NCBI GenBank assembly: GCA_964372185.1
Contig: CAYJPZ010000087.1
Location: forward strand, 1 to 16,231
Direction: 5' to 3'
Source: an uncultured candidatus Brocadiaceae bacterium
Lineage (GTDB): Bacteria; Planctomycetota; Brocadiia; Brocadiales; Brocadiaceae
DNA: 16,231 bases
This document shows positions 4,523-16,231 of this stretch, piece after piece; position 1 is the stretch's first letter, and every line of letters starts with the position of its first letter. The translations under genes were made by a program, and so were the position numbers. The notes beneath the pieces were generated by a model. It was not told the origin of the DNA. It searched no databases and was given only the letters and a program-made list of their open reading frames with translations.

Positions 4523-4759
4523 CTAGGGATTGTTTGACTGCCACTTCCGCGCTATTTTTATGAGTTCATCCTTCGACATTGCAACTGCTTTTCTGTTTTG
4601 TTCCTGTATTTTTTCAAAGATTTCTTCCCGATGCACCTTGACTTCCTTTGGCGCTACAATGCCGAGCTTAACTTGTTTATTCTGGCATTCAAGGATGGTA
4701 ATCTTTATTTCATTCCCAATAGTTATGCTTTCTCCCTGTTTTCTGGTCAATATCAGCAT
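4523..4759 (-). CDS. csrA: carbon storage regulator CsrA (RNA-binding translational regulator)
   Basis: 78 aa starting [51 protein letters not shown], the canonical CsrA fold sequence with a C-terminal extension. The SD is AAAGGAAGACC-ATG. It lies directly downstream of the fliW genes, as in FliW-type CsrA loci. Confidence 0.9.
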
Positions 4760-4930
4760 GGTCTTCCTTTAAAAAAACAACGATTCCGCCGCATTTAAGT
4801 AAGTCCTGAAACACAACCCCTCTGTCCCCATTTTCTAAAAGGAAGTATTAACGTTCTTTTTAAAAAATGAGGGTTCAGGGGGATGTTATCGGCCATTGCC
4901 TATACAACGCAAACTGTCACAATAAAGCGA

Positions 4931-5884
4931 TTACTTCTTAACGGACTTCTTAACAAATGGATGGTTTAGTGTATACTGTTTCCCTTCCAACACATATTGT
5001 TTTCCTACCCTGCTTTGCTGATTAATAAGGATCGGACCCTTCAAATTCACTGTGGCATTTTCCGGCTTATTGCCCAACGTAACGGTACAAAGTGTCTCCA
5101 CGCTTTTTTTGTCTTTTGCCCCTATCGCGGAAATATCTTGTATCTGTTGTGCCGGGTTGTAATCCGCAAAAAACGGCGTCGGGTTAACTATGGGGAACGT
5201 GACGTCCGGATTTTCCACAGAAACCAGCCATTCAAAAGGACGCCATTCTTCGATATTGAGGATGACAAACTCTCGTAACTCTTCAAATCCCATCAAACCG
5301 TCTTTAAAGGTGATAATGTTTTCTTTTTTAACGAGGAGTTCTCCCAGTTTGGAGCTGGATATCTTTACGCTGTCGCTCCCGCAACTGCTTTTTCCGCCGG
5401 ACGTTTTAACAAATGGATGGCTGAGCGAAAATACCCCTTCCAATACGTATTGTTTTCCTGTCTTGTTTTGCGTGTTGATAAGAATAGGCCCCTTCAGGTT
5501 CACCGTGGCGTTTTCCGGATTTACGCCTAAGGTTACGGTACAAAAGGTCTCAACGCCTTTCTTGTCTTTTGCCCCTATGGCAGAAAAATCTTCTATCTGT
5601 TGCATCGGGCTGTAGTCATTAAAAAACGGCGTCGGGTTGACTATGGGGAACGTAACGTCCGGATTTTCCACAGAAACCAGCCATTCAAAAGGATGCCATT
5701 CTTCGATGTTGAGGATGACAAACTCTCGTAAGTCTTCAAATCCCAATAGGCCGTCTTTAAAGGTGATAATGTTTTCTTTTTTAATGAGGACTTCACCTAA
5801 TTTAGGGGCTGATAGATTTGACCCTCCACTTCCACAACCTGCTTTTCCTTTTCCTGCCGGTTGACACGATCCCATTCCTGTCAT
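4931..5884 (-). CDS. fliW: tandem FliW-FliW fusion protein (two flagellar assembly factor FliW / CsrA-antagonist domains)
   Basis: 317 aa. Two near-identical halves, offset by 151 codons (453 nt), each read KLGE.L.KKENIITFKDGL.GFE.LREFVILNIEEW.PFEWLVSVENPDVTFPIVNPTPFF...ATVNLKGPILIN...GKQYVLEG...HPFVK. These are FliW-family hallmarks. The SD is AAAGAGGTGGATT-ATG. Confidence 0.85.
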   Translation of the reverse strand: MTGMGSCQPAGKGKAGCGSGGSNLSAPKLGEVLIKKENIITFKDGLLGFEDLREFVILNIEEWHPFEWLVSVENPDVTFPIVNPTPFFNDYSPMQQIEDFSAIGAKDKKGVETFCTVTLGVNPENATVNLKGPILINTQNKTGKQYVLEGVFSLSHPFVKTSGGKSSCGSDSVKISSSKLGELLVKKENIITFKDGLMGFEELREFVILNIEEWRPFEWLVSVENPDVTFPIVNPTPFFADYNPAQQIQDISAIGAKDKKSVETLCTVTLGNKPENATVNLKGPILINQQSRVGKQYVLEGKQYTLNHPFVKKSVKK

Positions 5885-6222
5885 AATCCACCTCTTTCTT
5901 TAAAAGGTTCAATGCCGCTGGATATAAATTACACGGGGCTAAGCGCACCAAGTGCAAACAATGAAAACACTCGGTATCGAACGATTGCTCTATTATTCCA
6001 TTCCGCGTTGATAACAGTTTACCTGGTATACCTTTTTTAAAAAAACGCAAAACAGTATATCGTTTTTCTCGTATATTTACAAACTTATTGTTATTGAGAA
6101 CGGTAATAATCTTTTCGACGCCGAAGGCCTTTCGTTACCCCATTCTTCTCAATAACGCGCTACCTGAAAATCCTTTTCCGAAACGCTGTTATACTCGCCG
6201 GTGTCCGCATGATATCAGTCGA

Positions 6223-6702
6223 CTACTTCTTAACAAGCGGGTGATTTAGGCTGTAATAGTCCTCCAGCAACACGAATTGCTTTCCTAATTTATTTTGCGT
6301 GTTAATAAGGATAGGCCCCTTGAGGTTTACCGTGGCATTTTCCGGCTTGTCGCCTAACGTGACGATGCAAAACGTTTCAATACATTTGGGGTCTTTTGTT
6401 TCTAATGCGGCAAGGTCTTCGATTTGCTGCATCGGCTGGTAATCCGTAAAAAAGGGTATTGGATTAATAACGGGGAAGGTAATTTCGGGGTTTTCCACGG
6501 AGACTAACCATTCAAAGGGGCGGCACTCTTCGATGTTAATAATGACAAACTCTTTTAAATTTTCAAATCCAAACAGCCCCTCTTTAAAAATAATAATATT
6601 TTCTTTATTAATGAATAAGTCGCCTAATTTTTGGGTTGATATATTCAGGCTGCTGCTTCCACAACCTTTTTCTTCCGGTTGACATGATCCCTTACCTGTC
6701 AT
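6223..6702 (-). CDS. fliW: FliW family protein (third, more divergent FliW paralog)
   Basis: 159 aa with the same architecture as each half of 4931-5884 (KLGDLFINKENIIIFKEGLFGFENLKEFVIINIEECRPFEWLVSVENPEITFPVINPIPFF...ATVNLKGPILINTQNKLGKQFVL). It has the same N-terminal MTGKGSCQP..GCGS extension. The SD is AAAGAGGTACACC-ATG. Confidence 0.85.
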   Translation of the reverse strand: MTGKGSCQPEEKGCGSSSLNISTQKLGDLFINKENIIIFKEGLFGFENLKEFVIINIEECRPFEWLVSVENPEITFPVINPIPFFTDYQPMQQIEDLAALETKDPKCIETFCIVTLGDKPENATVNLKGPILINTQNKLGKQFVLLEDYYSLNHPLVKK

Positions 6703-8910: not shown

Positions 8911-9636
8911 TTGTGGATACTTCAAGACCTTATCATCACTCGTTACCTCAAAAGAAAGACCCATTACTGCATCGGGTTAAATGACAAGATTGTCAGATTG
9001 GAATTAGGGGCTGATGAATACATACCAAAGCCCTTTGAGCCCCTGGAAGTGCTGGCGCGCGTAAAAACAGGCGAGCGTATTATAAAATTACAAAACACGC
9101 TTGAGAACAGCGCAAGATATTATGAAACGCTTGCGTTTACTGACGAGCTGACAAAACTTTATAACCGCAGGTTTTTCAATGAAGTTTTAAGGAAAGAATT
9201 TGCAATGGCAAAGAGGTATCAGCGCCCCCTTTCAATAATCCTGCTTGATATAGATCGTTTTAAACTATTTAATGATAAATACGGACATCCCACAGGAGAC
9301 GTTGTTTTACAAACAGTTGCCGCCGTTTTAAAAAAAACTGTAAGGGAGAGCGATATTGCAGCCAGGTACGGAGGCGAAGAGTTTTCTATCTTATTGATAA
9401 ATACACAAAAAGACCCTTCCGTTGAAATGGCGGAAAGGGTTAGAATAGCGGTAGAAGACACAAAAGCAGACACCGATCACGGCAGGCTTTCAGTTACCAT
9501 TAGCCTGGGGATAGGCATAAGGGAAAATACCGCAGCGGACGTGAATTCTCCTGATGAACTATTTGATCAGGCAGACGCGGCGCTCCTTATGGCAAAGCAA
9601 ACAGGCAGAAACAAGGTCTGCTGCAACACTCCATAG
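8911..9636 (+). CDS. GGDEF-domain diguanylate cyclase (retains only the last ~35 aa of a receiver domain)
   Basis: 241-aa ORF opening with TTG. It has a coiled-coil linker, then FTDELTKLYNRRFF...ILLDIDRFKLFNDKYGHPTGDVVL...RESDIAARYGGEEFSILL. The GGEEF active site (nt 9370-9384) is intact. An RxxD I-site (RESD) sits 5 residues upstream of it. Confidence 0.8.
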   Translation: MWILQDLIITRYLKRKTHYCIGLNDKIVRLELGADEYIPKPFEPLEVLARVKTGERIIKLQNTLENSARYYETLAFTDELTKLYNRRFFNEVLRKEFAMAKRYQRPLSIILLDIDRFKLFNDKYGHPTGDVVLQTVAAVLKKTVRESDIAARYGGEEFSILLINTQKDPSVEMAERVRIAVEDTKADTDHGRLSVTISLGIGIRENTAADVNSPDELFDQADAALLMAKQTGRNKVCCNTP

Positions 9637-9675
9637 ACTAAAAACTGGTAATTCTACAAAACCGATAAACCCTTG

Positions 9676-10260
9676 CTACTGCAACCGGGGGTCAAAAGGC
9701 CCAAGCGCCTTGCCTGCAACCCGAAACTCCTCTTCCAGCAGCCATTTTTTTATAGCCAACCCCGATGCGTAACCGGTCAACCGTCCGTCCGCACCAATAA
9801 CCCTGTGGCAAGGAATTATGGGGGGGAGGGGATTGTTGTGATTGGCGGAACCTACGGCCCTGGATGCCCCGGGACTCCCGATCTGCTCCGCCACCCATTG
9901 GTAAGACCGGCATTCTCCGTAGGGAATCTCCTGCAGTTTCTTCCATACCTTCGTCTGAAACGGGGTTCCACTGCTTATATCCAGGGAGAAATCGAAGGTT
10001 ACTTGTTTACCGGAGAAGTATGTCCTTAGAGCGGCAATTTCATACTGTAGGGATACGTCGTTTCTTTCGATGGGTGTTGCGGCTTTTTTGAAAAAGGCGT
10101 GCAGGAAACCGTTTTCCGTGTCGTGGGGAAAAGAAATCCGACAAACCCCGCGCGCATTTTTTGCTACGAAGACCAGCCCTACAGGGGTGGAAAGACTGCT
10201 GAAGTAAATCACACCGGAATTACTTTCTTGCACTTTTGTTTGCAGCACCCTTATTTCCAT
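9676..10260 (-). CDS. ogt: methylated-DNA--protein-cysteine methyltransferase (Ogt/MGMT)
   Basis: The C-terminal domain reads TPFQTKVWKKLQEIPYGECRSYQWVAEQIGSPGASRAVGSANHNNPLPPIIPCHRVIGADGRLTGY, with the PCHRV active site. I place the start at the internal ATG at 10260 (MEIRVLQ...). The track ORF extends to 10347 but that part overlaps the upstream gene. Confidence 0.8.
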   Translation of the reverse strand: MEIRVLQTKVQESNSGVIYFSSLSTPVGLVFVAKNARGVCRISFPHDTENGFLHAFFKKAATPIERNDVSLQYEIAALRTYFSGKQVTFDFSLDISSGTPFQTKVWKKLQEIPYGECRSYQWVAEQIGSPGASRAVGSANHNNPLPPIIPCHRVIGADGRLTGYASGLAIKKWLLEEEFRVAGKALGPFDPRLQ

Positions 10261-11050
10261 CGCCGTCGCCCTTGCCCTTTGAGCCTTTACCCGCGCCGGA
10301 ACCTTTACGTCCAATAGTGCTGCGATATCCCGCAACAATCCCCACAAGAACTAGGGTTGAAGAAAACAAAAAGACCAGAGCGCAGAGGGACAGGACGGTT
10401 ATTGCCCATAAATCATGGATGCAAAAACGCCACCACGAATATTTCAACAGGCGCACGCCGAATCTTTCCAGACAGAAAAAGGTTAGCGCCAGGACAAAAA
10501 ATCCAAGTAGTAAATACTTAATATCCTCTTTTTTGGGCGCCATAGAAAAAGAAAAAACAAGGACGGTCAACAAAAAGAAGATATGGCATATATTGGTGAT
10601 ATGAAACTGCCGATGGAAGGTGTAGAACGTTGTCACAACGGCAATATAGAGATACTTTATGATATTGAATAACCCATAAAGTGAAAAGTGAAACTCGTAA
10701 TTAATAGATTGCGTGAAGCGGATGGGGTTACCAAGTATTGTTGATATAAAAAAGATAAAAAAGGCGCATCCGAAAATGGGGGCAACGGCGACCAGGAAGT
10801 CAAACACCACCGGAATCTTCGGCTTGTCATACTTAATTTCCGAATCATTGAGCGCAAATAAGTTCAATTCTTTAATGGTTGTTCCCGTTATGAGGCATAC
10901 GAGCGCGTGGCTAAGGTCGTGAACGATGCTGCCCGGCAAAAGGAACACCTTGATTATTTTTGCATCGGTGTATTTTCCCCATAATCCGGAAGTCGCAGAG
11001 CTGAGGATGGCAACCAGGATAAGACCAAGACCAAGTAGTAAGTATATCAT
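10220..11050 (-). CDS. polytopic integral membrane protein with Gly/Lys-rich C-terminal tail, function unknown
   Basis: 276 aa with about 7-8 hydrophobic segments. It carries an HDLSH (HxxxH-like) string in LPGSIVHDLSHALVCLITG. The tail is GRKGSGAGKGSKGKGDGDGNKGAANKSARK. I do not recognise a confident family. Confidence 0.55.
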   Translation of the reverse strand: MIYLLLGLGLILVAILSSATSGLWGKYTDAKIIKVFLLPGSIVHDLSHALVCLITGTTIKELNLFALNDSEIKYDKPKIPVVFDFLVAVAPIFGCAFFIFFISTILGNPIRFTQSINYEFHFSLYGLFNIIKYLYIAVVTTFYTFHRQFHITNICHIFFLLTVLVFSFSMAPKKEDIKYLLLGFFVLALTFFCLERFGVRLLKYSWWRFCIHDLWAITVLSLCALVFLFSSTLVLVGIVAGYRSTIGRKGSGAGKGSKGKGDGDGNKGAANKSARK

Positions 11051-11230
11051 AATCTAATAGAAAAAAACTCCGTAATGATTGAAACACAATAACCCGAAAT
11101 TTGCGAAACCGGTTTTTATCGGTTCGAGGCTTCACTTCACTAATCATGGACAGTATATTCAGAGAGTATAGATTAGCAAAGCGTCAGGCGGTATGTCAAA
11201 CAGAAAGTGTTAGGAAAGCAAATATTTGTT

Positions 11231-11258
11231 TTGCAATTTGGCGTGAGAAATATATAAT
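11231..11258 (+). promoter_or_regulatory. candidate sigma-70 promoter for tRNA-Ala (and possibly acpS cluster)
   Basis: TTGCAA (11231-11236), 16 nt, then TATAAT (11253-11258). It lies ~65 nt upstream of the tRNA 5' end. Confidence 0.5.
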
Positions 11259-11323
11259 TTATACGTTGTAGGAACTTTCTGCCGAATAGCAACTACTTAT
11301 TAGCTCATAAAGAATACTTGAGT

Positions 11324-11399
11324 GGGGACGTAGCTCAGCCGGGAGAGCGTCTCGTTCGCAATGAGAAGGTCAGGGGTTCGATTCCCCTCGTCTCCACCA
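11324..11399 (+). tRNA. tRNA-Ala (anticodon CGC), CCA encoded
   Basis: Hand-folded cloverleaf. The acceptor stem GGGGACG/CGTCTCC carries the G3:U70 alanine identity pair. The D stem is GCTC/GAGC. The anticodon stem is TCTCG/TGAGA with loop TTCGCAA (anticodon CGC). The variable loop is AGGTC. The T arm is AGGGG-TTCGATT-CCCCT. It ends with discriminator A and CCA. Confidence 0.95.
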
Positions 11400-11510
11400 T
11401 TTATGTTTTCATGGGTCAAGGCCTTGTTAAGCTTCAAAGCCTTTCCTCAGACTTTATGAAGACATATTCAACGGTAACCAAGCCTATTCAAAACCAAGAC
11501 CATTTGCTTT

Positions 11511-11888
11511 ATGTATGTTGGCATTGATATTATTGAGATAAAACGCATAGAAAGATTGTTTTCTGCAAATGAAGGTTTTTTAAAGAAAATCTACACGGAA
11601 AATGAGGTCGCCTACTGCAACGGAAGAAAAAATAAATACCAGCACTTTGCCGCCCGCTTTGCCGCAAAAGAGGCCATGTTCAAGGCGCTGGGAACGGGTT
11701 GGAGGGGTACCATGAAGTGGACGGACATCGAGACGCTCAATGACGAAACGGGCAGGCCATATCTCAATTTGTACGGAAGCGTAAAAGAACTGGCGGACAA
11801 GAAAAAGATCCATTCTATCGCCGTGTCACTATCACACTGCCAGGATTATGCTATAGCAGAGGTGCTTTTGGTGGTAGGAATGGCGTAG
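11511..11888 (+). CDS. acpS: holo-[acyl-carrier-protein] synthase (4'-phosphopantetheinyl transferase, AcpS type)
   Basis: 125 aa: MYVGIDIIEIKRIERL...YCNGRKNKYQHFAARFAAKEAMFKALGTG...WTDIE...GRPYLNLYG...IHSIAVSLSHCQDYAIAEVLL. This is the canonical AcpS pattern and size. Confidence 0.9.
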   Translation: MYVGIDIIEIKRIERLFSANEGFLKKIYTENEVAYCNGRKNKYQHFAARFAAKEAMFKALGTGWRGTMKWTDIETLNDETGRPYLNLYGSVKELADKKKIHSIAVSLSHCQDYAIAEVLLVVGMA

Positions 11889-11973
11889 CCTCCGTTAAAC
11901 GCCAATTGGTCGCGTAACAACTGGCAGAGTACGATTGACATACTAATCGGAGTAAAATAGGGGGATTTGTGTA

Positions 11974-12205
11974 ATGGCACACACGGTAATTTTTGATACG
12001 CTGGCATATGCAAAAGAAACATAAGGAAGCCGGAGTTCCTGATGCGCAGGCAGAAGTGCATGCAGAGGCTATTGCAGAATTAATTGATGAACGTTTAGCA
12101 ACAAAACAGGCTTTGAAAGAACTGGAATTACGCCTGACCATTCGCCTGGGGGCTATGATGGCCGCCAGTATTGCAATTATAGCCGCGTTGGTTAAGTTGC
12201 TGTAG
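11974..12205 (+). pseudogene. DUF1640-like small tail-anchored coiled-coil protein, interrupted by a 1-nt frameshift
   Basis: The ATG at 11974 has a strong SD (GGGGGA, 8 nt) and gives MAHTVIFDTLAYAKET*, stopping at 12022. The rest of the family-typical sequence (KKHKEAGVPDAQAEVHAEAIAELIDERLATKQALKELELRLTIRLGAMMAASIAIIAALVKLL) is in the +1 frame (track ORF 11993-12205, TTG-opened). The switch falls in CAAAAGAAA (12011-12019). Confidence 0.6.
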
Positions 12206-12229
12206 AAGGAATGCAAGAGAGGAATATTC

Positions 12230-13711
12230 ATGAAAAAACTGGTGTTGATTAATCCTCACCCAATCGGAAACGTAGGGGAGGAAAACGTATCCGTATTAAA
12301 CCAAATGCCGGTAAACCTCGGCTATCTCAAGGTGTTAACCCCAAAAAACTGGGACGTCGATATCATTGATGAAACCCAGGAACACGCCGTAGATGAAGTT
12401 ACCGGCGACATTACCTTTGGCGGGGCTGACCTGGTGGGCGTCACCGCCGTCAGTTACCAGGCACAGCGGGCGTATCAGATTGCGGCTGCGTGCAGGAAGC
12501 GGGGCATACCCGTCATTATGGGTGGTATCCATGCCACCAGCTATCCGGAAGAGGCTGCAAAACACGTTGACTGCGTGGTAACCAGGGAGGCCGTTACTAC
12601 CTGGGAAAAGATTATCCGTGATTTTGAGAAGGGACAGCTCCAAAGGCGGTACGACGGTGTGCTGACACCCATGGAGCTTTATCACGGACTGCGCCCCGAC
12701 AGAAAATTTCTGCAAGACAAATACAAGTACCGCTATTCAGGGATTATTACCACTGCCGGATGTCCGTTTAGCTGTGAGTTTTGCTCCGTCCCCCAATTCC
12801 AGGGAAAGAAATACCGGGAAAGGCCGATAGAGGACGTGCTGGATGAATTTGAGTCCATCAAGGGGCAATTCCGCGGCCTGATCCTGACGGATGAAAACTT
12901 CTACGGCCACAGCAAGAAGTCGAACGAGCGGGTACTGGAGCTTTTCAAAGGGATGGTGGATAGGGGTATTTACCAAAACTGGTTTGGTTTTACCTCGCTC
13001 AATATCTATAAAGACGACGAGACCCTTGAGTATATGAAGAAGAGCGGATGCGTCGGAGTGCTTATCGGGATCGAATCCATCAACGAGGAAGCCCTGAAGA
13101 CGATGAACAAGAACGTAAACCTGCGCATATCCATAGAAAACTACTTCGAGGCCATTGCCAACATCCGCAAGCACGGCCTGGCAGTATGGGGAACGATGGT
13201 CTTCGGGAACGACGCCGACACCCCGGACACCTTTAAACAGGTCGCCGATTTTGTCCTTGATTCCCACGTAGATATTATGACCTGCGGCATCCTGTGCCCA
13301 TTCATTAATACGCCGCTGTATCACCGTTTGAACAACGATGGCAGGCTTTTCAGGACGAATTTCCCGGCGGATTGGAAGTATTATACGTCACACCACCTCA
13401 CCTATATCCTCAAAAACATGTCTCTCCAGGAACTTATCGACGGCTTCCAGTATCTGTACGACAAGATTTACGACACCGGCGTGCTGCGGAAGAGGTTTCA
13501 AAATGCCAAAGAGGTACTTGCGGACAACATGAATGCCGCCATGTTCGCGTTCCGGGTAAACCTGGACTGGCAAAGCGTCTACCAGCACTTGATACAGAAT
13601 TTGAAAGACTTACAGACAACGGGGTTTTATGAAGAGATGCTGAAAAGACATAACCAGGCAAAGAAACAGGGGAAGATATCGGAATTAGCATCGGTTGGGA
13701 TTACGCCGTAG
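12230..13711 (+). CDS. B12-binding domain-containing radical SAM protein (class B rSAM)
   Basis: 493 aa with SD GAGGA. The N-terminal region is cobalamin-binding-like (GADLVGVTAVSYQAQRAYQIAAACRKRGIPVIMGGIHAT). The motif TTAGCPFSCEFCSV is CxxxCxxC at residues 178/182/185 (nt 12761-12784). A TIM-barrel region follows (LILTDENF...VGVLIGIESINEE...WGTMVFG), then a long C-terminal helical extension. Confidence 0.9.
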   Translation: MKKLVLINPHPIGNVGEENVSVLNQMPVNLGYLKVLTPKNWDVDIIDETQEHAVDEVTGDITFGGADLVGVTAVSYQAQRAYQIAAACRKRGIPVIMGGIHATSYPEEAAKHVDCVVTREAVTTWEKIIRDFEKGQLQRRYDGVLTPMELYHGLRPDRKFLQDKYKYRYSGIITTAGCPFSCEFCSVPQFQGKKYRERPIEDVLDEFESIKGQFRGLILTDENFYGHSKKSNERVLELFKGMVDRGIYQNWFGFTSLNIYKDDETLEYMKKSGCVGVLIGIESINEEALKTMNKNVNLRISIENYFEAIANIRKHGLAVWGTMVFGNDADTPDTFKQVADFVLDSHVDIMTCGILCPFINTPLYHRLNNDGRLFRTNFPADWKYYTSHHLTYILKNMSLQELIDGFQYLYDKIYDTGVLRKRFQNAKEVLADNMNAAMFAFRVNLDWQSVYQHLIQNLKDLQTTGFYEEMLKRHNQAKKQGKISELASVGITP

Positions 13712-13828
13712 GATAGCATACCGTTTCAGACCATTAATAATACGTTCGAGAATATTAATTTAGGATTCATGTTACAAACGTAAATCCACCGTAGGTGGTA
13801 ACAATCAAATCCTTAGGGGAGCATTATC

Positions 13829-14128
13829 ATGGCAGTGATAACGGTACCCAGGGTGCTGCGGGAAAAACGAGGGGAAGACGGCGCTGATTCTTTGGTAGAA
13901 TTAATGAACAAAACAGACGTCGTGGTAAAAGAGGACGTGCTGGTATTTGTAGAGGAAAAGTTTGAAAGGCGACGGGCTGAAGAATTAGCAAAAGTTAACG
14001 AAGTAATTGCCCAAACGAATGTAAAAATTGCTGAAACAAAATCAGAAATAGTTTGCTGGATGTTTATATTTTGGGCAGGCCAAATAGGGGTGATGATCGG
14101 TATCTTATTCGCCTTTTTTAGAAAATAA
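13829..14128 (+). CDS. small coiled-coil protein with C-terminal transmembrane anchor, function unknown
   Basis: 99 aa with a good SD (GGGGAG, 7 nt). It reads VPRVLREKRGEDGADSLVELMNK...FERRRAEELAKVNEVIAQTNVKIAETKSEIVCWMFIFWAGQIGVMIGILFAFFRK. The charged helical region followed by a WMFIFW..Q hydrophobic tail resembles a widespread family of small tail-anchored proteins. Confidence 0.65.
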   Translation: MAVITVPRVLREKRGEDGADSLVELMNKTDVVVKEDVLVFVEEKFERRRAEELAKVNEVIAQTNVKIAETKSEIVCWMFIFWAGQIGVMIGILFAFFRK

Positions 14129-14163
14129 GTTATTATTGGAGGTTGTTCAAAGAACATACGGCT

Positions 14164-15375
14164 ATGCCAAAGGTAGTCATCACCGGTTTAGGATTAGTTA
14201 CACCCGTCGGTACCGGCATAAAAAAAAGCTGGGAGTCGTTCCTCCGGGGCAGGAGCGGCGCAAACGAGATGAAGTCCTTTGACACCTCGAAATACAAGGT
14301 ACACCGCTCCTGTGAGGTAAAAGACTTTGCCCTGGACGTCGAACTGGACAACCAGATAAAAGAAAACACCATCCACAAATACGTCTATTACGCCGCACGT
14401 GAAGCACTCCTGGAAAGCGGCCTGCCGGACGAAAAGCATTGTGACCGTGAACGGTTCGGCGTCGCCATTGGAACACTGGCCGCAGAACTAACCCCTTTTG
14501 AGCGATTGCTGAGAGTAGACACCTCGAAAAAAGACAACGGTTTTGACAAAATCGTTGCAGCCGTCTATCCGCCCAACTCCATCACCAACGTCCTTGCCCG
14601 ATATTTCGGCTTTGAAGGTCCGACGATGATCTCGCTGAATGCCTGCTCTTCCGGCAACCACGCTATCGCCTGGGCGTATGACCGCCTGATGGAAGACAAG
14701 GTTGACGTGGTAATGGTCGGCGGAGGAGATATGATCCCTCAAACGGAGTTCACCCACTTCCACAACCTCAAGTCCCTTGCGCCGGAACGGTGCCAGCCCT
14801 TCGACAAAAATCGTCAGGGTCTCATGATTGGCGAGGGCGCCGGCATCCTCATCATGGAACGCTATGAATTTGCGAAAAAACGCGGTGCGAAGATTATTGC
14901 CGAAATGGCCGGATACGGGCTAAGCTGCGATGGATTCCACATGACCGCGCCCCATCCGGAAGGTAATGGCGCCGTGAAATGCATGAGCGATGCGCTGAAG
15001 ATGGCAGGGCTTTCGTCCGCCGATATCGACTACATCAATGCGCATGGCACAGGCACCCCGCACAACGACAAATCGGAGACCATCGCCATAAAGCGGGTAT
15101 TCCAGGACCGCGCTTACAAGATACCGTGCAGTTCCACAAAATCAATGATTGGCCATCTTATGGGCGCCGCCAGCGCCGTTGAATCGGTCATCTGCTGCCT
15201 GGCATTGCGGCACGGGATGCTGCCCCCAACGATTAACTACGAAACACCCGATCCCGAATGCGATCTCGACTATATACCGAATACCGCACGAGAATGGAAG
15301 GTAAGGCACGTCCTAAACAACTCCTTCGCATTCGGCGGGAATAATGCAACGACGATATTTAGCCGGGTAGATTAA
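14164..15375 (+). CDS. fabF: beta-ketoacyl-[ACP] synthase II-like condensing enzyme (FabF/KAS family, Cys-His-His)
   Basis: MPKVVITGLGLVTPVG...ISLNACSSGNHAI (active Cys)...DGFHMTAPHP (His)...YINAHGTGTPHND (His)...STKSMIGHLMGAAS...NSFAFGGNNAT. The track ORF opens at a TTG at 14143. I prefer the ATG at 14164 because it gives the family-typical N-terminus, but the start is uncertain. Confidence 0.9.
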   Translation: MPKVVITGLGLVTPVGTGIKKSWESFLRGRSGANEMKSFDTSKYKVHRSCEVKDFALDVELDNQIKENTIHKYVYYAAREALLESGLPDEKHCDRERFGVAIGTLAAELTPFERLLRVDTSKKDNGFDKIVAAVYPPNSITNVLARYFGFEGPTMISLNACSSGNHAIAWAYDRLMEDKVDVVMVGGGDMIPQTEFTHFHNLKSLAPERCQPFDKNRQGLMIGEGAGILIMERYEFAKKRGAKIIAEMAGYGLSCDGFHMTAPHPEGNGAVKCMSDALKMAGLSSADIDYINAHGTGTPHNDKSETIAIKRVFQDRAYKIPCSSTKSMIGHLMGAASAVESVICCLALRHGMLPPTINYETPDPECDLDYIPNTAREWKVRHVLNNSFAFGGNNATTIFSRVD

Positions 15376-15418
15376 GCGAATTAATCGTTAAACCGGCTGG
15401 GCTGGGCGGCATGGACAA

Positions 15419-15535
15419 ACCCCGTTTATCCGCGCCTGTTTGTGACCCACAACATTCCTTTGTTAAAAAATTAAGCAGCGTATTTTTTGCAAAGGGTTTT
15501 TGGCACCCTGTGTCGTCAATGGCAAGAAGCCCGTC
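15419..15535 (-). mobile_element. short relic of an IS701-family (DDE) transposase
   Basis: The minus-strand frame reads DGLLAIDDTGCQKPFAKNTLLNFLTKECCGSQTGADKRG. This resembles the conserved DG.L..D.TGF.KKG..SVGV.RQYCG..GK..N block of IS701-type transposases. Only ~40 codons are present, with no ends or inverted repeats identified. Confidence 0.35.
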
Positions 15536-15586
15536 TTTTGTGGATACAGTGGTTCTTCGTTTTTGAATAATTTCCAGTGACTGGAA

Positions 15587-16231
15587 ATGAAGATGGTAAA
15601 GAGCAGAGAGAATAGCATAAAAGAAGAACCGATTGAAAAACAGCTTTGGAAGGCGGCAGACAAGCTCCGTAAGAATATTGATGCCGCAGAATACAAGCAC
15701 ATTGTCCTCGGTTTGATCTTCCTGAGATACATTTCCGACGCCTTTGAAGCCTTGCATACCAGGCTGAAAAACGGCACGGGTGAATACGCCGGGGCAGACC
15801 CCGAAGATAAGGACGAATACAAGGCGGAAAATGTCTTCTTTGTCCCCGAAATTGCCCGCTGGTCATATCTGCAATCCAAAGCAAAGCTTCCTACCATCGG
15901 CAAAGAAGTTGATAATGCGATGGACGCCATCGAGAAGGATAATCCATCGCTCAAAGACGTACTGCCGAAGGTCTTTGCGCGCGGAAACCTTGACCCCACC
16001 AGCCTTGGATGTTTAATAGACCTTGTTGGGAACATTGCCCTTGTCGATGCAAAAGCCCGCAGCGCCGACGTGCTCGGCCATGTGTTTGAATACTTCCTCG
16101 GTGAATTTGCCCTTGCCGAAGGAAAGAAGGGCGGGCAGTTCTATACGCCGCGAAGCGTTGTTGAGCTTTTGGTAGAGATGCTTGAACCGCATAAAGGCCG
16201 GGTGTTTGACCCCTGTTGCGGTTCGGGTGGT
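15587..16231 (+). CDS. hsdM: type I restriction-modification system methyltransferase subunit HsdM (5' partial, runs off window)
   Basis: Hand translation gives 215 codons with no stop: [54 protein letters not shown]...[20 protein letters not shown]...[53 protein letters not shown]. This is the HsdM N-terminal domain followed by the AdoMet motif I. It is absent from the ORF track only because it lacks a stop in the window. Confidence 0.9.

Follow-up and report, generated by a model that had tools for sequence, protein, structure and literature searches.

An incomplete copy of the acpS-radical SAM-ketosynthase cluster kuste2802-2805 in an uncultured member of the Brocadiaceae

The stretch of DNA analysed here (the window; 16,231 nt, contig CAYJPZ010000087.1 of assembly GCA_964372185.1, assigned to an uncultured Brocadiaceae bacterium) harbors a locus of five open reading frames (ORFs), all co-directional and on the + strand. 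Three of them encode enzymes, namely a holo-acyl carrier protein (ACP) synthase, AcpS, a class B radical S-adenosylmethionine enzyme with a B12-binding domain, rSAM, and a FabF-like ketosynthase (KAS), KAS1. By sequence comparison, the corresponding genes are orthologs of kuste2802, kuste2803 and kuste2804 of Kuenenia stuttgartiensis, and kuste2802-2805 is among the four clusters that Rattray et al. 2009 (PMC2649909) put forward as ladderane candidates. The link to proposed ladderane loci that had been drawn in a preliminary description of this DNA is thereby confirmed, and the interpretation given there finds support in part. The locus is accordingly a rediscovery of a known candidate and not a new system; as kuste2802-2804 were found again, the window adds no new ladderane candidate. 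The copy present in the window is, in addition, incomplete and partly degraded. The following features were identified:

11324-11399, + strand: tRNA-Ala(CGC), found by ARAGORN and by Rfam RF00005 (66.9 bits), 111 nt 5' of acpS
11511-11888, + strand: acpS, holo-ACP synthase (4'-phosphopantetheinyl transferase; PF01648, TIGR00516), kuste2802 ortholog
11974-12205, + strand: orf70, probable frameshifted remnant of a DUF1640-like protein with a C-terminal membrane anchor, intact pieces 11974-12024 and 11993/12008-12205
12230-13711, + strand: class B radical SAM enzyme (rSAM), 493 aa (PF02310, PF04055 and DUF4070), Kuste2803 ortholog
13829-14128, + strand: orf99, LA_3696/DUF1640-like, 99 aa, with a hydrophobic C-terminal anchor (NF047472)
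14164-15375, + strand: KAS1, active FabF-like ketosynthase (PF00109 and PF02801), kuste2804 ortholog
15376-16231, + strand: 3' boundary, a 211-nt spacer followed by hsdM, which starts at 15587 and leaves the window (HsdM_N, 93 bits, and N6_Mtase)

For rSAM, the assignment is based on an identity of 81% to the enzyme of a Kuenenia-type locus (L098) and, likewise, of 81% to the protein P0032; at 90% identity, P0032 and CAJ73554.1/Q1Q0N1 of K. stuttgartiensis cluster together. As kuste2805 is listed as CAJ73556 by Rattray et al. (PMC2649909), CAJ73554 corresponds to kuste2803. In a clustering of 120 homologs the window rSAM falls into the Kuste2803 ortholog clade. Among the matches listed, every homolog with 68-90% identity belongs to the Brocadiales, namely to Ca. 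Wujingus, Brocadia, Kuenenia, Scalindua or Hypogeohydataceae, non-anammox organisms contribute a clade at 54-62% identity, and outside the family the values drop to 39% or less; the scan of contigs carrying rSAM homologs yielded at least four anammox loci among the 600 stretches listed. Matches of about 50-52% in Kuenenia and Brocadia were rejected as rSAM orthologs, since these sit in a different candidate cluster (Cluster I, discussed below) and the true Kuenenia ortholog stands at 81%. Neither hzs nor hdh is present in the window, and HZS and HDH have been reported in Wujingus metagenome-assembled genomes (MAGs; bioRxiv 10.1101/2023.04.27.538623). The 81-90% protein identity to orthologs of Kuenenia, Brocadia and Wujingus suggests that the host is an anammox member of the Brocadiales.

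The order acpS-rSAM-KAS1-KAS2, in which KAS2 is a second ketosynthase gene, was found in loci of Scalindua rubra (L008), Ca. Wujingus (L010), a Brocadiaceae MAG (L012), Hypogeohydataceae (L013), a Brocadia species representative (L014), Ca. Subterrananammoxibius (L015) and the Kuenenia-type locus L098. In the latter, acpS and rSAM are followed by ketosynthases of 403 and 411 residues; its first three products share 66%, 81% and 83% identity with their counterparts in the window. Comparing synteny with Kuenenia, Brocadia and Scalindua thus revealed that the adjacency of acpS, rSAM and KAS is kept in the loci of seven relatives; recurring in at least seven anammox lineages, it is far beyond what would be expected by chance. 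In L008, L012 and L013, a 675-aa FadH/OYE-type Fe-S flavoenzyme comes either immediately behind the KAS pair or a few genes later, and a short-chain dehydrogenase/reductase (SDR) that passes the FabG equivalog TIGR01830 (320.8 > 297.75) and a small MIase-like protein are also located downstream. A crotonase is present downstream in L008 and L012 and absent in L013. L010 carries the flavoenzyme and a crotonase before the fetched stretch ends, and L015 the flavoenzyme.

Contigs from four ENA samples hold the window locus at 99.9-100% identity and the junction between KAS1 and hsdM is identical in two independent contigs (L001 and L002), so that the arrangement is not an assembly artefact. AcpS is an AcpS-type phosphopantetheinyl transferase (PPTase), a single domain of about 125 aa scoring above both cutoffs (PF01648, 78.2 bits vs 25; TIGR00516, 98.6 vs 59.8), and is 66% identical to the Kuenenia-type AcpS of L098 and 59-94% identical to those of other anammox loci. 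The class B architecture ascribed to rSAM in the preliminary description was borne out by the domain searches, as PF02310 (44.3 > 32.1), PF04055 (79.2 > 29.5) and DUF4070 were all matched and the three cysteines of the motif C178-x3-C182-x2-C185 are invariant in an alignment of 20 sequences. Similarly, the Cys-His-His triad predicted for the elongating ketosynthase is intact in KAS1, with the active site in the context LNACSSG. An alternative KAS1 start is a TTG at 14143; the ATG at 14164 gives 403 aa, and the relatives have 402-404 aa. The preliminary description had further placed five genes on one strand. This layout stands for the three enzymes and orf99 and fails for an intact DUF1640-like gene at 11974-12205, as this span of 232 nt is not a multiple of 3 and is divided between two frames. 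The lack of the usual fab partners noted earlier extends beyond the window, as acpP, fabG, fabZ and fabD are not found among the genes called within 10 kb on either side. A scan of positions 11050-15700 for promoters and terminators gave counts at chance level (7 vs 5.7; 4 vs 5.6) and is therefore uninformative on operon structure.

The loss of integrity of the cluster is most obvious at its 3' end. KAS2 was found neither in the window nor within 8.3 kb downstream in L001 (tblastn, E<=10), remnants of the FadH, ECH, SDR and MIase genes are lacking within 8.3 kb downstream of KAS1, and DNA homology to five relatives ends at the KAS1 stop codon. When Brocadia KAS2 was used as query, no match on the 85,703-bp contig occurred among the 120 matches listed (>=76% identity). 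With a defence island abutting KAS1, KAS2 and the reductive genes are missing from the locus and must act from elsewhere or have been lost. Compared to kuste2802-2805, the window shares the order acpS, B12-rSAM and active FabF-like KAS on the same strand, but it lacks the kuste2805-type dead KAS, has two extra small intergenic ORFs of which one is frameshifted, and passes into a type I restriction-modification (R-M)/defence island that begins 211 nt after KAS1, at the site taken by KAS2 in the relatives. The gap between acpS and rSAM, which holds orf70, is 341 nt, while in the relatives the genes overlap or are separated by about 10-60 nt; the gap between rSAM and KAS1 is 452 nt and holds orf99. 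In the defence island, type I R-M genes (hsdM, hsdS and a 1222-aa hsdR) are interleaved with MC3 and LmuB_C, which are Lamassu-like (window 15587-16231 and L001 14142-21482). An ORF on the - strand at 15463-16035 was rejected as a gene because it overlaps the N-terminus of hsdM on the + strand.

The nearest relative, L097 (ENA ERZ1286166 contig_5414, 9343-12319; 90-92% DNA identity), is likewise interrupted. Synteny runs from an MGMT gene to rSAM and ends 12 nt past the rSAM stop codon, where mutS follows and no KAS is found; the contig has many split genes, typical of an uncorrected long-read assembly, and its rSAM is called in two pieces. The 5' synteny block shared with this relative corresponds to positions 9655-11907 of the window and includes the tRNA-Ala(CGC), which is a conserved flanking gene outside the lipid cluster. 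L098 passes from KAS2 straight into PIN, DUF4325, AIPR and methylase genes. Taken together, the 3' ends of the window, L097 and L098 indicate that rearrangement and defence-gene insertion recur at the 3' edge of the cluster, and in the lineage of the window the cluster is being taken apart.

The two small ORFs had been proposed to serve as membrane-anchored scaffolds, a role which the comparison does not support. Both orf70 and orf99 are absent from every relative's cluster examined, and orf99 is also absent from L097. The first 16 codons of orf70, MAHTVIFDTLAYAKET* (from 11974), lie in a different frame than 11993/12008-12205, and PF07798 does not match orf70 as it stands and reaches 18 bits (cutoff 33.5) for the frame-joined version. 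The two frames and a match that appears only after joining mark orf70 as a probable frameshifted remnant. L097 retains the 5' flank of orf70 and its last ~10 nt with the body missing; hence, orf70 was present in the common ancestor, was deleted in one descendant and frameshifted in the other. It is thus not a conserved component of the cluster. The product of orf99 passes the NF047472 LA_3696 N-terminal model (47.7 > 32) and matches no Pfam family, PF07798 (cutoff 33.5) included. Its 145 detectable homologs, many with PF07798 and often several per contig, come from Deltaproteobacteria, Tectimicrobiota, Marinimicrobia and unclassified metagenome contigs, i.e. from a family sporadic in unrelated phyla, and orf99 is a lineage-specific insertion between rSAM and KAS1. 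Frame-joined orf70 and orf99 gave no alignment in BLASTP, so that paralogy between them is not shown, and neither target-site duplications nor terminal repeats became apparent around the insertions, the repeats there being short matches at chance level only. Both ORFs look like sporadic accessory genes, inserted incidentally. It should be mentioned that a 182-aa CCDC90-like/DUF1640 gene is located in L098 (7934-8482, - strand), 1 kb upstream of acpS; small anchored proteins of this type seem to recur near the cluster without belonging to it.

The cluster has a paralogous counterpart in anammox bacteria. Cluster I, kuste3603-3608, consists of amxACP, amxFabZ, amxFabF2, amxFabFmut, a PDH-like desaturase and a B12-rSAM (PMC10139942; bioRxiv 10.64898/2026.05.19.726425; PDB 9s5h/9s5i), and in Kuenenia and Brocadia the rSAM paralogs with about 52% identity end exactly such an array (ACP-FabZ-FabF2-FabFmut-PDH-rSAM). 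The true Cluster I loci L005, L006, L016 and L017 carry this other rSAM paralog, which is 50-52% identical to that of the window, and the two enzymes are each other's closest anammox paralogs. The parts of both clusters are paralogous, KAS1 being 46% identical to amxFabF2 and KAS2 of the relatives best matching the amxFabFmut chain, and the logic of an active and a dead ketosynthase (KS) is common to both. In contrast to Cluster I, the window-type cluster has no ACP, FabZ or desaturase and features acpS instead, its rSAM precedes the KS pair, and the position of the catalytic cysteine in the dead KS is occupied by Phe as opposed to Val. Accordingly, amxACP, amxFabZ, the FabF2/FabFmut pair and the PDH-like desaturase were all absent from the window and from L001.

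KAS1 is, judged by its sequence, not a canonical FabF, and its closest solved relative is the anammox protein amxFabF2. It remains below the cutoff of the FabF equivalog TIGR03150 (421.5 vs 493.75) and passes the subfamily model PRK07314 (416.3 > 387); identities are 83% to the Kuenenia-type KAS1, 86% to that of Wujingus, 46% to amxFabF2 and 38% to E. coli FabF. The best match in the PDB is 9s5h_B with 414 bits, compared to at most 311 for canonical FabFs, and chain B of 9s5h was confirmed as amxFabF2 by its score of 860 bits against the protein of B. sinica. For KAS2 of Wujingus, in turn, the dead subunit 9s5h_C is the best match (308 bits vs <=247). In a neighbour-joining tree the KAS1 proteins group together, as do the KAS2 proteins, and amxFabFmut is the sister of the KAS2 clade. 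Placed relative to FabF in this way, with its order kept across anammox families, KAS1 does not correspond to the case raised in the preliminary description of a sole housekeeping fabF with an adjacency not kept in relatives.

In the relatives, KAS2 invariably carries the exchanges Cys->Phe, His->Asn/Gly and His->Glu, and Cys->Phe, His->Asn and His->Glu have been published for kuste2805 (PMC2649909). The pair amxFabF2 and amxFabFmut has been described as an obligate heterodimer resembling a ketosynthase/chain-length factor (KS/CLF) complex which prefers short chains; the preprint does not mention kuste2804/2805 (bioRxiv 10.64898/2026.05.19.726425). From the paralogy to amxFabF2/amxFabFmut, we infer that KAS1 and KAS2 may form a second KS/CLF-like pair. 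A check for charge asymmetry in the heterodimer interface (segments 110-140 and 196-206) did not reproduce the published negative/positive asymmetry even for the Cluster I control pair and is therefore uninformative. The arrangement is reminiscent of the KS/CLF of type II polyketide synthases (PKS), e.g. that for actinorhodin (1tqy), in which an active KS stands beside a homolog without the catalytic Cys and His. However, the anammox sequences are FabF-like and not PKS-like (240 bits for 1tqy_A vs 414 for amxFabF2), the window lacks the partner, and the KAS1-KAS2 heterodimer is a prediction only.

With respect to rSAM, the enzyme class can be stated with more certainty than the reaction. The predicted structure (AF2; pLDDT 89, pTM 0.87) adopts the standard three-domain fold of class B enzymes, and the nearest structures are those of AprD4, which ranks first, MgmA, TsrM, TokK, CysS and OxsB, at 12-18% identity. 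These matches establish the class of the enzyme, not what it catalyzes. AprD4, a diol dehydratase and not a methyltransferase, has the class B fold and yet does not use cobalamin; with this protein as top match, cobalamin use by rSAM does not follow from the fold alone. AprD4 (6fd2), OxsB (5ul2), BchE and HpnJ share the three-domain fold (the window rSAM model has a TM score of 0.67-0.73 to AprD4) and provide examples of class B enzymes that rearrange their substrates by radical chemistry or form C-C bonds instead of transferring methyl groups, but they differ by the low identity of 12-18%, by NCBIfam scores 5-10 fold below cutoff and by their unrelated substrates (aminoglycoside, nucleoside, porphyrin and hopanoid). 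Membership in TIGR04072, BchE, HpnJ, HpnR or PhpK was rejected, as all scores are far below the cutoffs (PhpK 96.7/600, HpnJ 82.9/578, BchE 82.2/481, HpnR 67.5/650, and further MJ_0865 66/360 and AprD4 55.4/500), and a grouping of rSAM with a characterized family unrelated to lipids, which had been considered initially, is thus not observed. TIGR04072 (rSAM_ladder_B12, 'lipid biosynthesis B12-binding/radical SAM protein') is similar in its class B architecture and its annotation ties it to unusual lipid clusters; the window rSAM (81.8 bits) and the Cluster I rSAM (88.9 bits; cutoff 360), in contrast, both belong to another family. Kuste2803 has been named a potential cyclobutane-forming enzyme in a review of cobalamin-dependent radical SAM enzymes (PMC9204698).

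Homologs of the module also occur outside the anammox bacteria. A locus of an Acidobacteriota-labelled MAG (L096; Blastocatellia in NCBI; GCA_035652355.1, 7466-13800; 50% GC; with a CarboxypepD_reg outer-membrane protein as neighbour) encodes an active KS that falls into the KAS1 clade and a dead KS (Phe/Glu) in the KAS2 clade, together with two rSAMs, one 58% identical to the window type and one 63% to the Cluster I type, and a DUF374 gene. A second locus (L094; NCBI GCA_037446155.1, JBBIJE010000001.1, 1-21449 of a 506-kb contig; 64.6% GC vs 37-52% for all anammox loci) carries the co-directional array ACP-FabZ-KS-degenerate KS-three tandem B12-rSAMs-KS-dead KS-MIase-ECH-FabG-ACP-FabH-acpS-KS. 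Here the ACP is 53% identical to amxACP, FabZ stands at 49%, the first KS is 57% identical to amxFabF2 and a later KS 46% to KAS1; of the three rSAMs, one is 56% identical to the Cluster I type, one is intermediate and one is 54% identical to the window type. This merged array argues for the two anammox clusters being parts of one pathway, and it indicates that the family of pathways extends beyond anammox bacteria. A third rSAM clade is represented by L095 (10001-11425; NCBI GCA_051388875.1), which shares 58% identity with the Cluster I type and 54% with that of the window; this gene stands alone, without KAS or ACP neighbours, and is flanked by futalosine-pathway-like genes (VitK2_biosynth, CofH-like) on one side and an Mla lipid-transport operon on the other. 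The best matches that are neither anammox nor part of such a module, at 33-35% identity, stem from uncultured Geobacter MAGs (L020, 6949-14934; L022, 10001-16617), in which two or three B12-rSAMs are followed by an SDR and two KAS genes, an array reminiscent of the deltaproteobacterial synteny noted by Rattray et al. 2009.

Based on these comparisons, we consider it probable that the cluster constitutes a dedicated ACP-dependent elongation module, the chain of which is functionalized by the class B rSAM, and that it acts alongside Cluster I in the synthesis of an anammox-specific, probably ladderane, lipid. AcpS would phosphopantetheinylate carrier proteins, and KAS1, most likely in a heterodimer with the dead, chain-length-factor-like KAS2, would elongate a specialized ACP-bound chain, each round of elongation being completed by FabG, crotonase and ene-reductase where these are present. 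On this chain, rSAM might use a 5'-deoxyadenosyl radical and cobalamin to functionalize an unactivated carbon, and the module as a whole might represent the second half, beside Cluster I, of the lipid pathway.

Several observations weigh against this reading. When Javidpour et al. 2016 re-synthesized kuste2802-2805 and expressed the genes in E. coli, most of the protein was insoluble and new fatty acids did not appear (PMC4790861). Neither biochemistry nor genetics ties any gene of the cluster to ladderanes, and an in vitro ladderane synthesis is lacking in the literature. Kuste2802 is the sole acpS of K. stuttgartiensis (PMC2649909), so that its presence in the cluster may reflect housekeeping co-regulation. 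The window without KAS2 and L097 without either KAS after rSAM demonstrate that the operon can be broken and that tight linkage is dispensable. Finally, most of the class B enzymes characterized so far are methyltransferases, and the KS/dead-KS/rSAM modules in L096 and L094 come from groups of which neither is known for ladderanes.

The prevalence of methyltransferases among class B enzymes leads to the strongest of the alternatives, namely that rSAM is an ordinary cobalamin-dependent C-methyltransferase which introduces methyl branches into ACP- or lipid-bound fatty acids anaerobically, with the KS/CLF pair only supplying the chain and without any relation to cyclobutane formation. Methyl-branched acids such as 10-methylhexadecanoate are present in anammox bacteria, and mid-chain methylated lipids abound in Acidobacteriota. 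Among the nearest structural matches, methyltransferases form the majority (MgmA, TsrM, TokK and CysS), UniProt labels Kuste2803 as putative bacteriochlorophyllide C-8(2)-methyltransferase, and the homologs at 54-62% identity belong to non-anammox organisms. On the other hand, the top structural match AprD4 is no methylase, OxsB, BchE and HpnJ demonstrate that the class also rearranges or cyclizes, and the methylase models are matched 5-10 fold below cutoff. Moreover, duplication of the whole KS/CLF/rSAM module within anammox bacteria suggests a dedicated chain-building pathway and not a single tailoring step, and we regard a plain methylase as unlikely, albeit deserving consideration.

It might also be speculated, with somewhat less confidence still, that the KS/dead-KS/twin-rSAM module is an older, horizontally shared lipid-tailoring system, with L094 representing the undivided pathway and Cluster I and kuste2802-2805 its separated halves. 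If this were true, non-anammox carriers such as L096 and L094 might produce ladderane-like or otherwise radical-cyclized lipids, and they could fill a gap in anammox research, namely that of a system amenable to culture or expression.

A related proposal, which we consider doubtful, is that the module makes a non-ladderane specialized lipid or polyketide-like product shared with some Acidobacteriota or other phyla, the tie to ladderanes being guilt by association. The KAS1-clade active KS, the KAS2-clade dead KS and both rSAM paralog types in L096, as well as the combined array of L094, fit this proposal, and an antiSMASH-style 'ladderane' label is, judging by titles in the literature, widely reported for non-anammox taxa. 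The taxonomy of L096 rests on its MAG label alone, however, and among the matches listed identity is at least 68% within anammox, 54-62% in the L094/L096-type loci and 39% or less elsewhere, a drop after which the function may have diverged. In addition, kuste2805 and the Cluster I genes have been reported as acquired when anammox arose. That the locus merely unites a general PPTase, a general elongating FabF and a lipid-unrelated rSAM as neighbours by history is highly improbable and already disfavoured: acpS is single-copy in Kuenenia, KAS1 keeps its full triad and passes PRK07314, and mutS takes the place of the KAS genes after rSAM in L097, but Kuenenia has a separate canonical fabF (kustd1386) beside acpP, fabD and fabH (PMC2649909), KAS1 stays below the FabF equivalog cutoff and resembles amxFabF2 more than any canonical FabF, the four-gene order persists between families whose proteins are only about 59-75% identical, and the rSAM/KS/dead-KS trio recurs in unrelated genomes.

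The biosynthesis of ladderanes has been a question since 2002 and, with neither in vitro reconstitution nor a genetic system, the pathway is unsolved as of 2026. The present comparison helps to narrow this question in several respects. Cluster I has a core (rSAM, active KS and dead KS) of which the present cluster is a paralogous duplicate, and this fits models in which two chain segments are provided by separate modules; kuste2804/2805 are candidates for a second KS/CLF-like heterodimer; and several lineages equip the cluster with its own FabG, crotonase and ene-reductase downstream. As the operon is breakable, linkage is not essential, and the close homologs of the module outside anammox may be easier to study.

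Additional observations were made in other parts of the window. At 4523-6702 (- strand), csrA is followed by two fliW genes, one of which encodes a 317-aa double-FliW fusion with 82.6% DNA identity between its two halves. The sibling contig L002 (1291-3017) has a single-domain 166-aa FliW at the position of the fusion, consistent with recombination between repeats. The 5' end of the window encodes, on the - strand (225-743 and 1554-2180), a protein with an Mrr-type restriction endonuclease domain and part of a tyrosine recombinase, the latter covering only positions 2-88 of 172 of the Phage_integrase profile; the two suggest another mobile or defence remnant. A GGDEF diguanylate cyclase ORF at 8911-9636 (+ strand) has a TTG start and opens with an apparent receiver-domain tail; as the 500 nt 5' of this ORF are full of stop codons, it may represent an N-terminally truncated response regulator.

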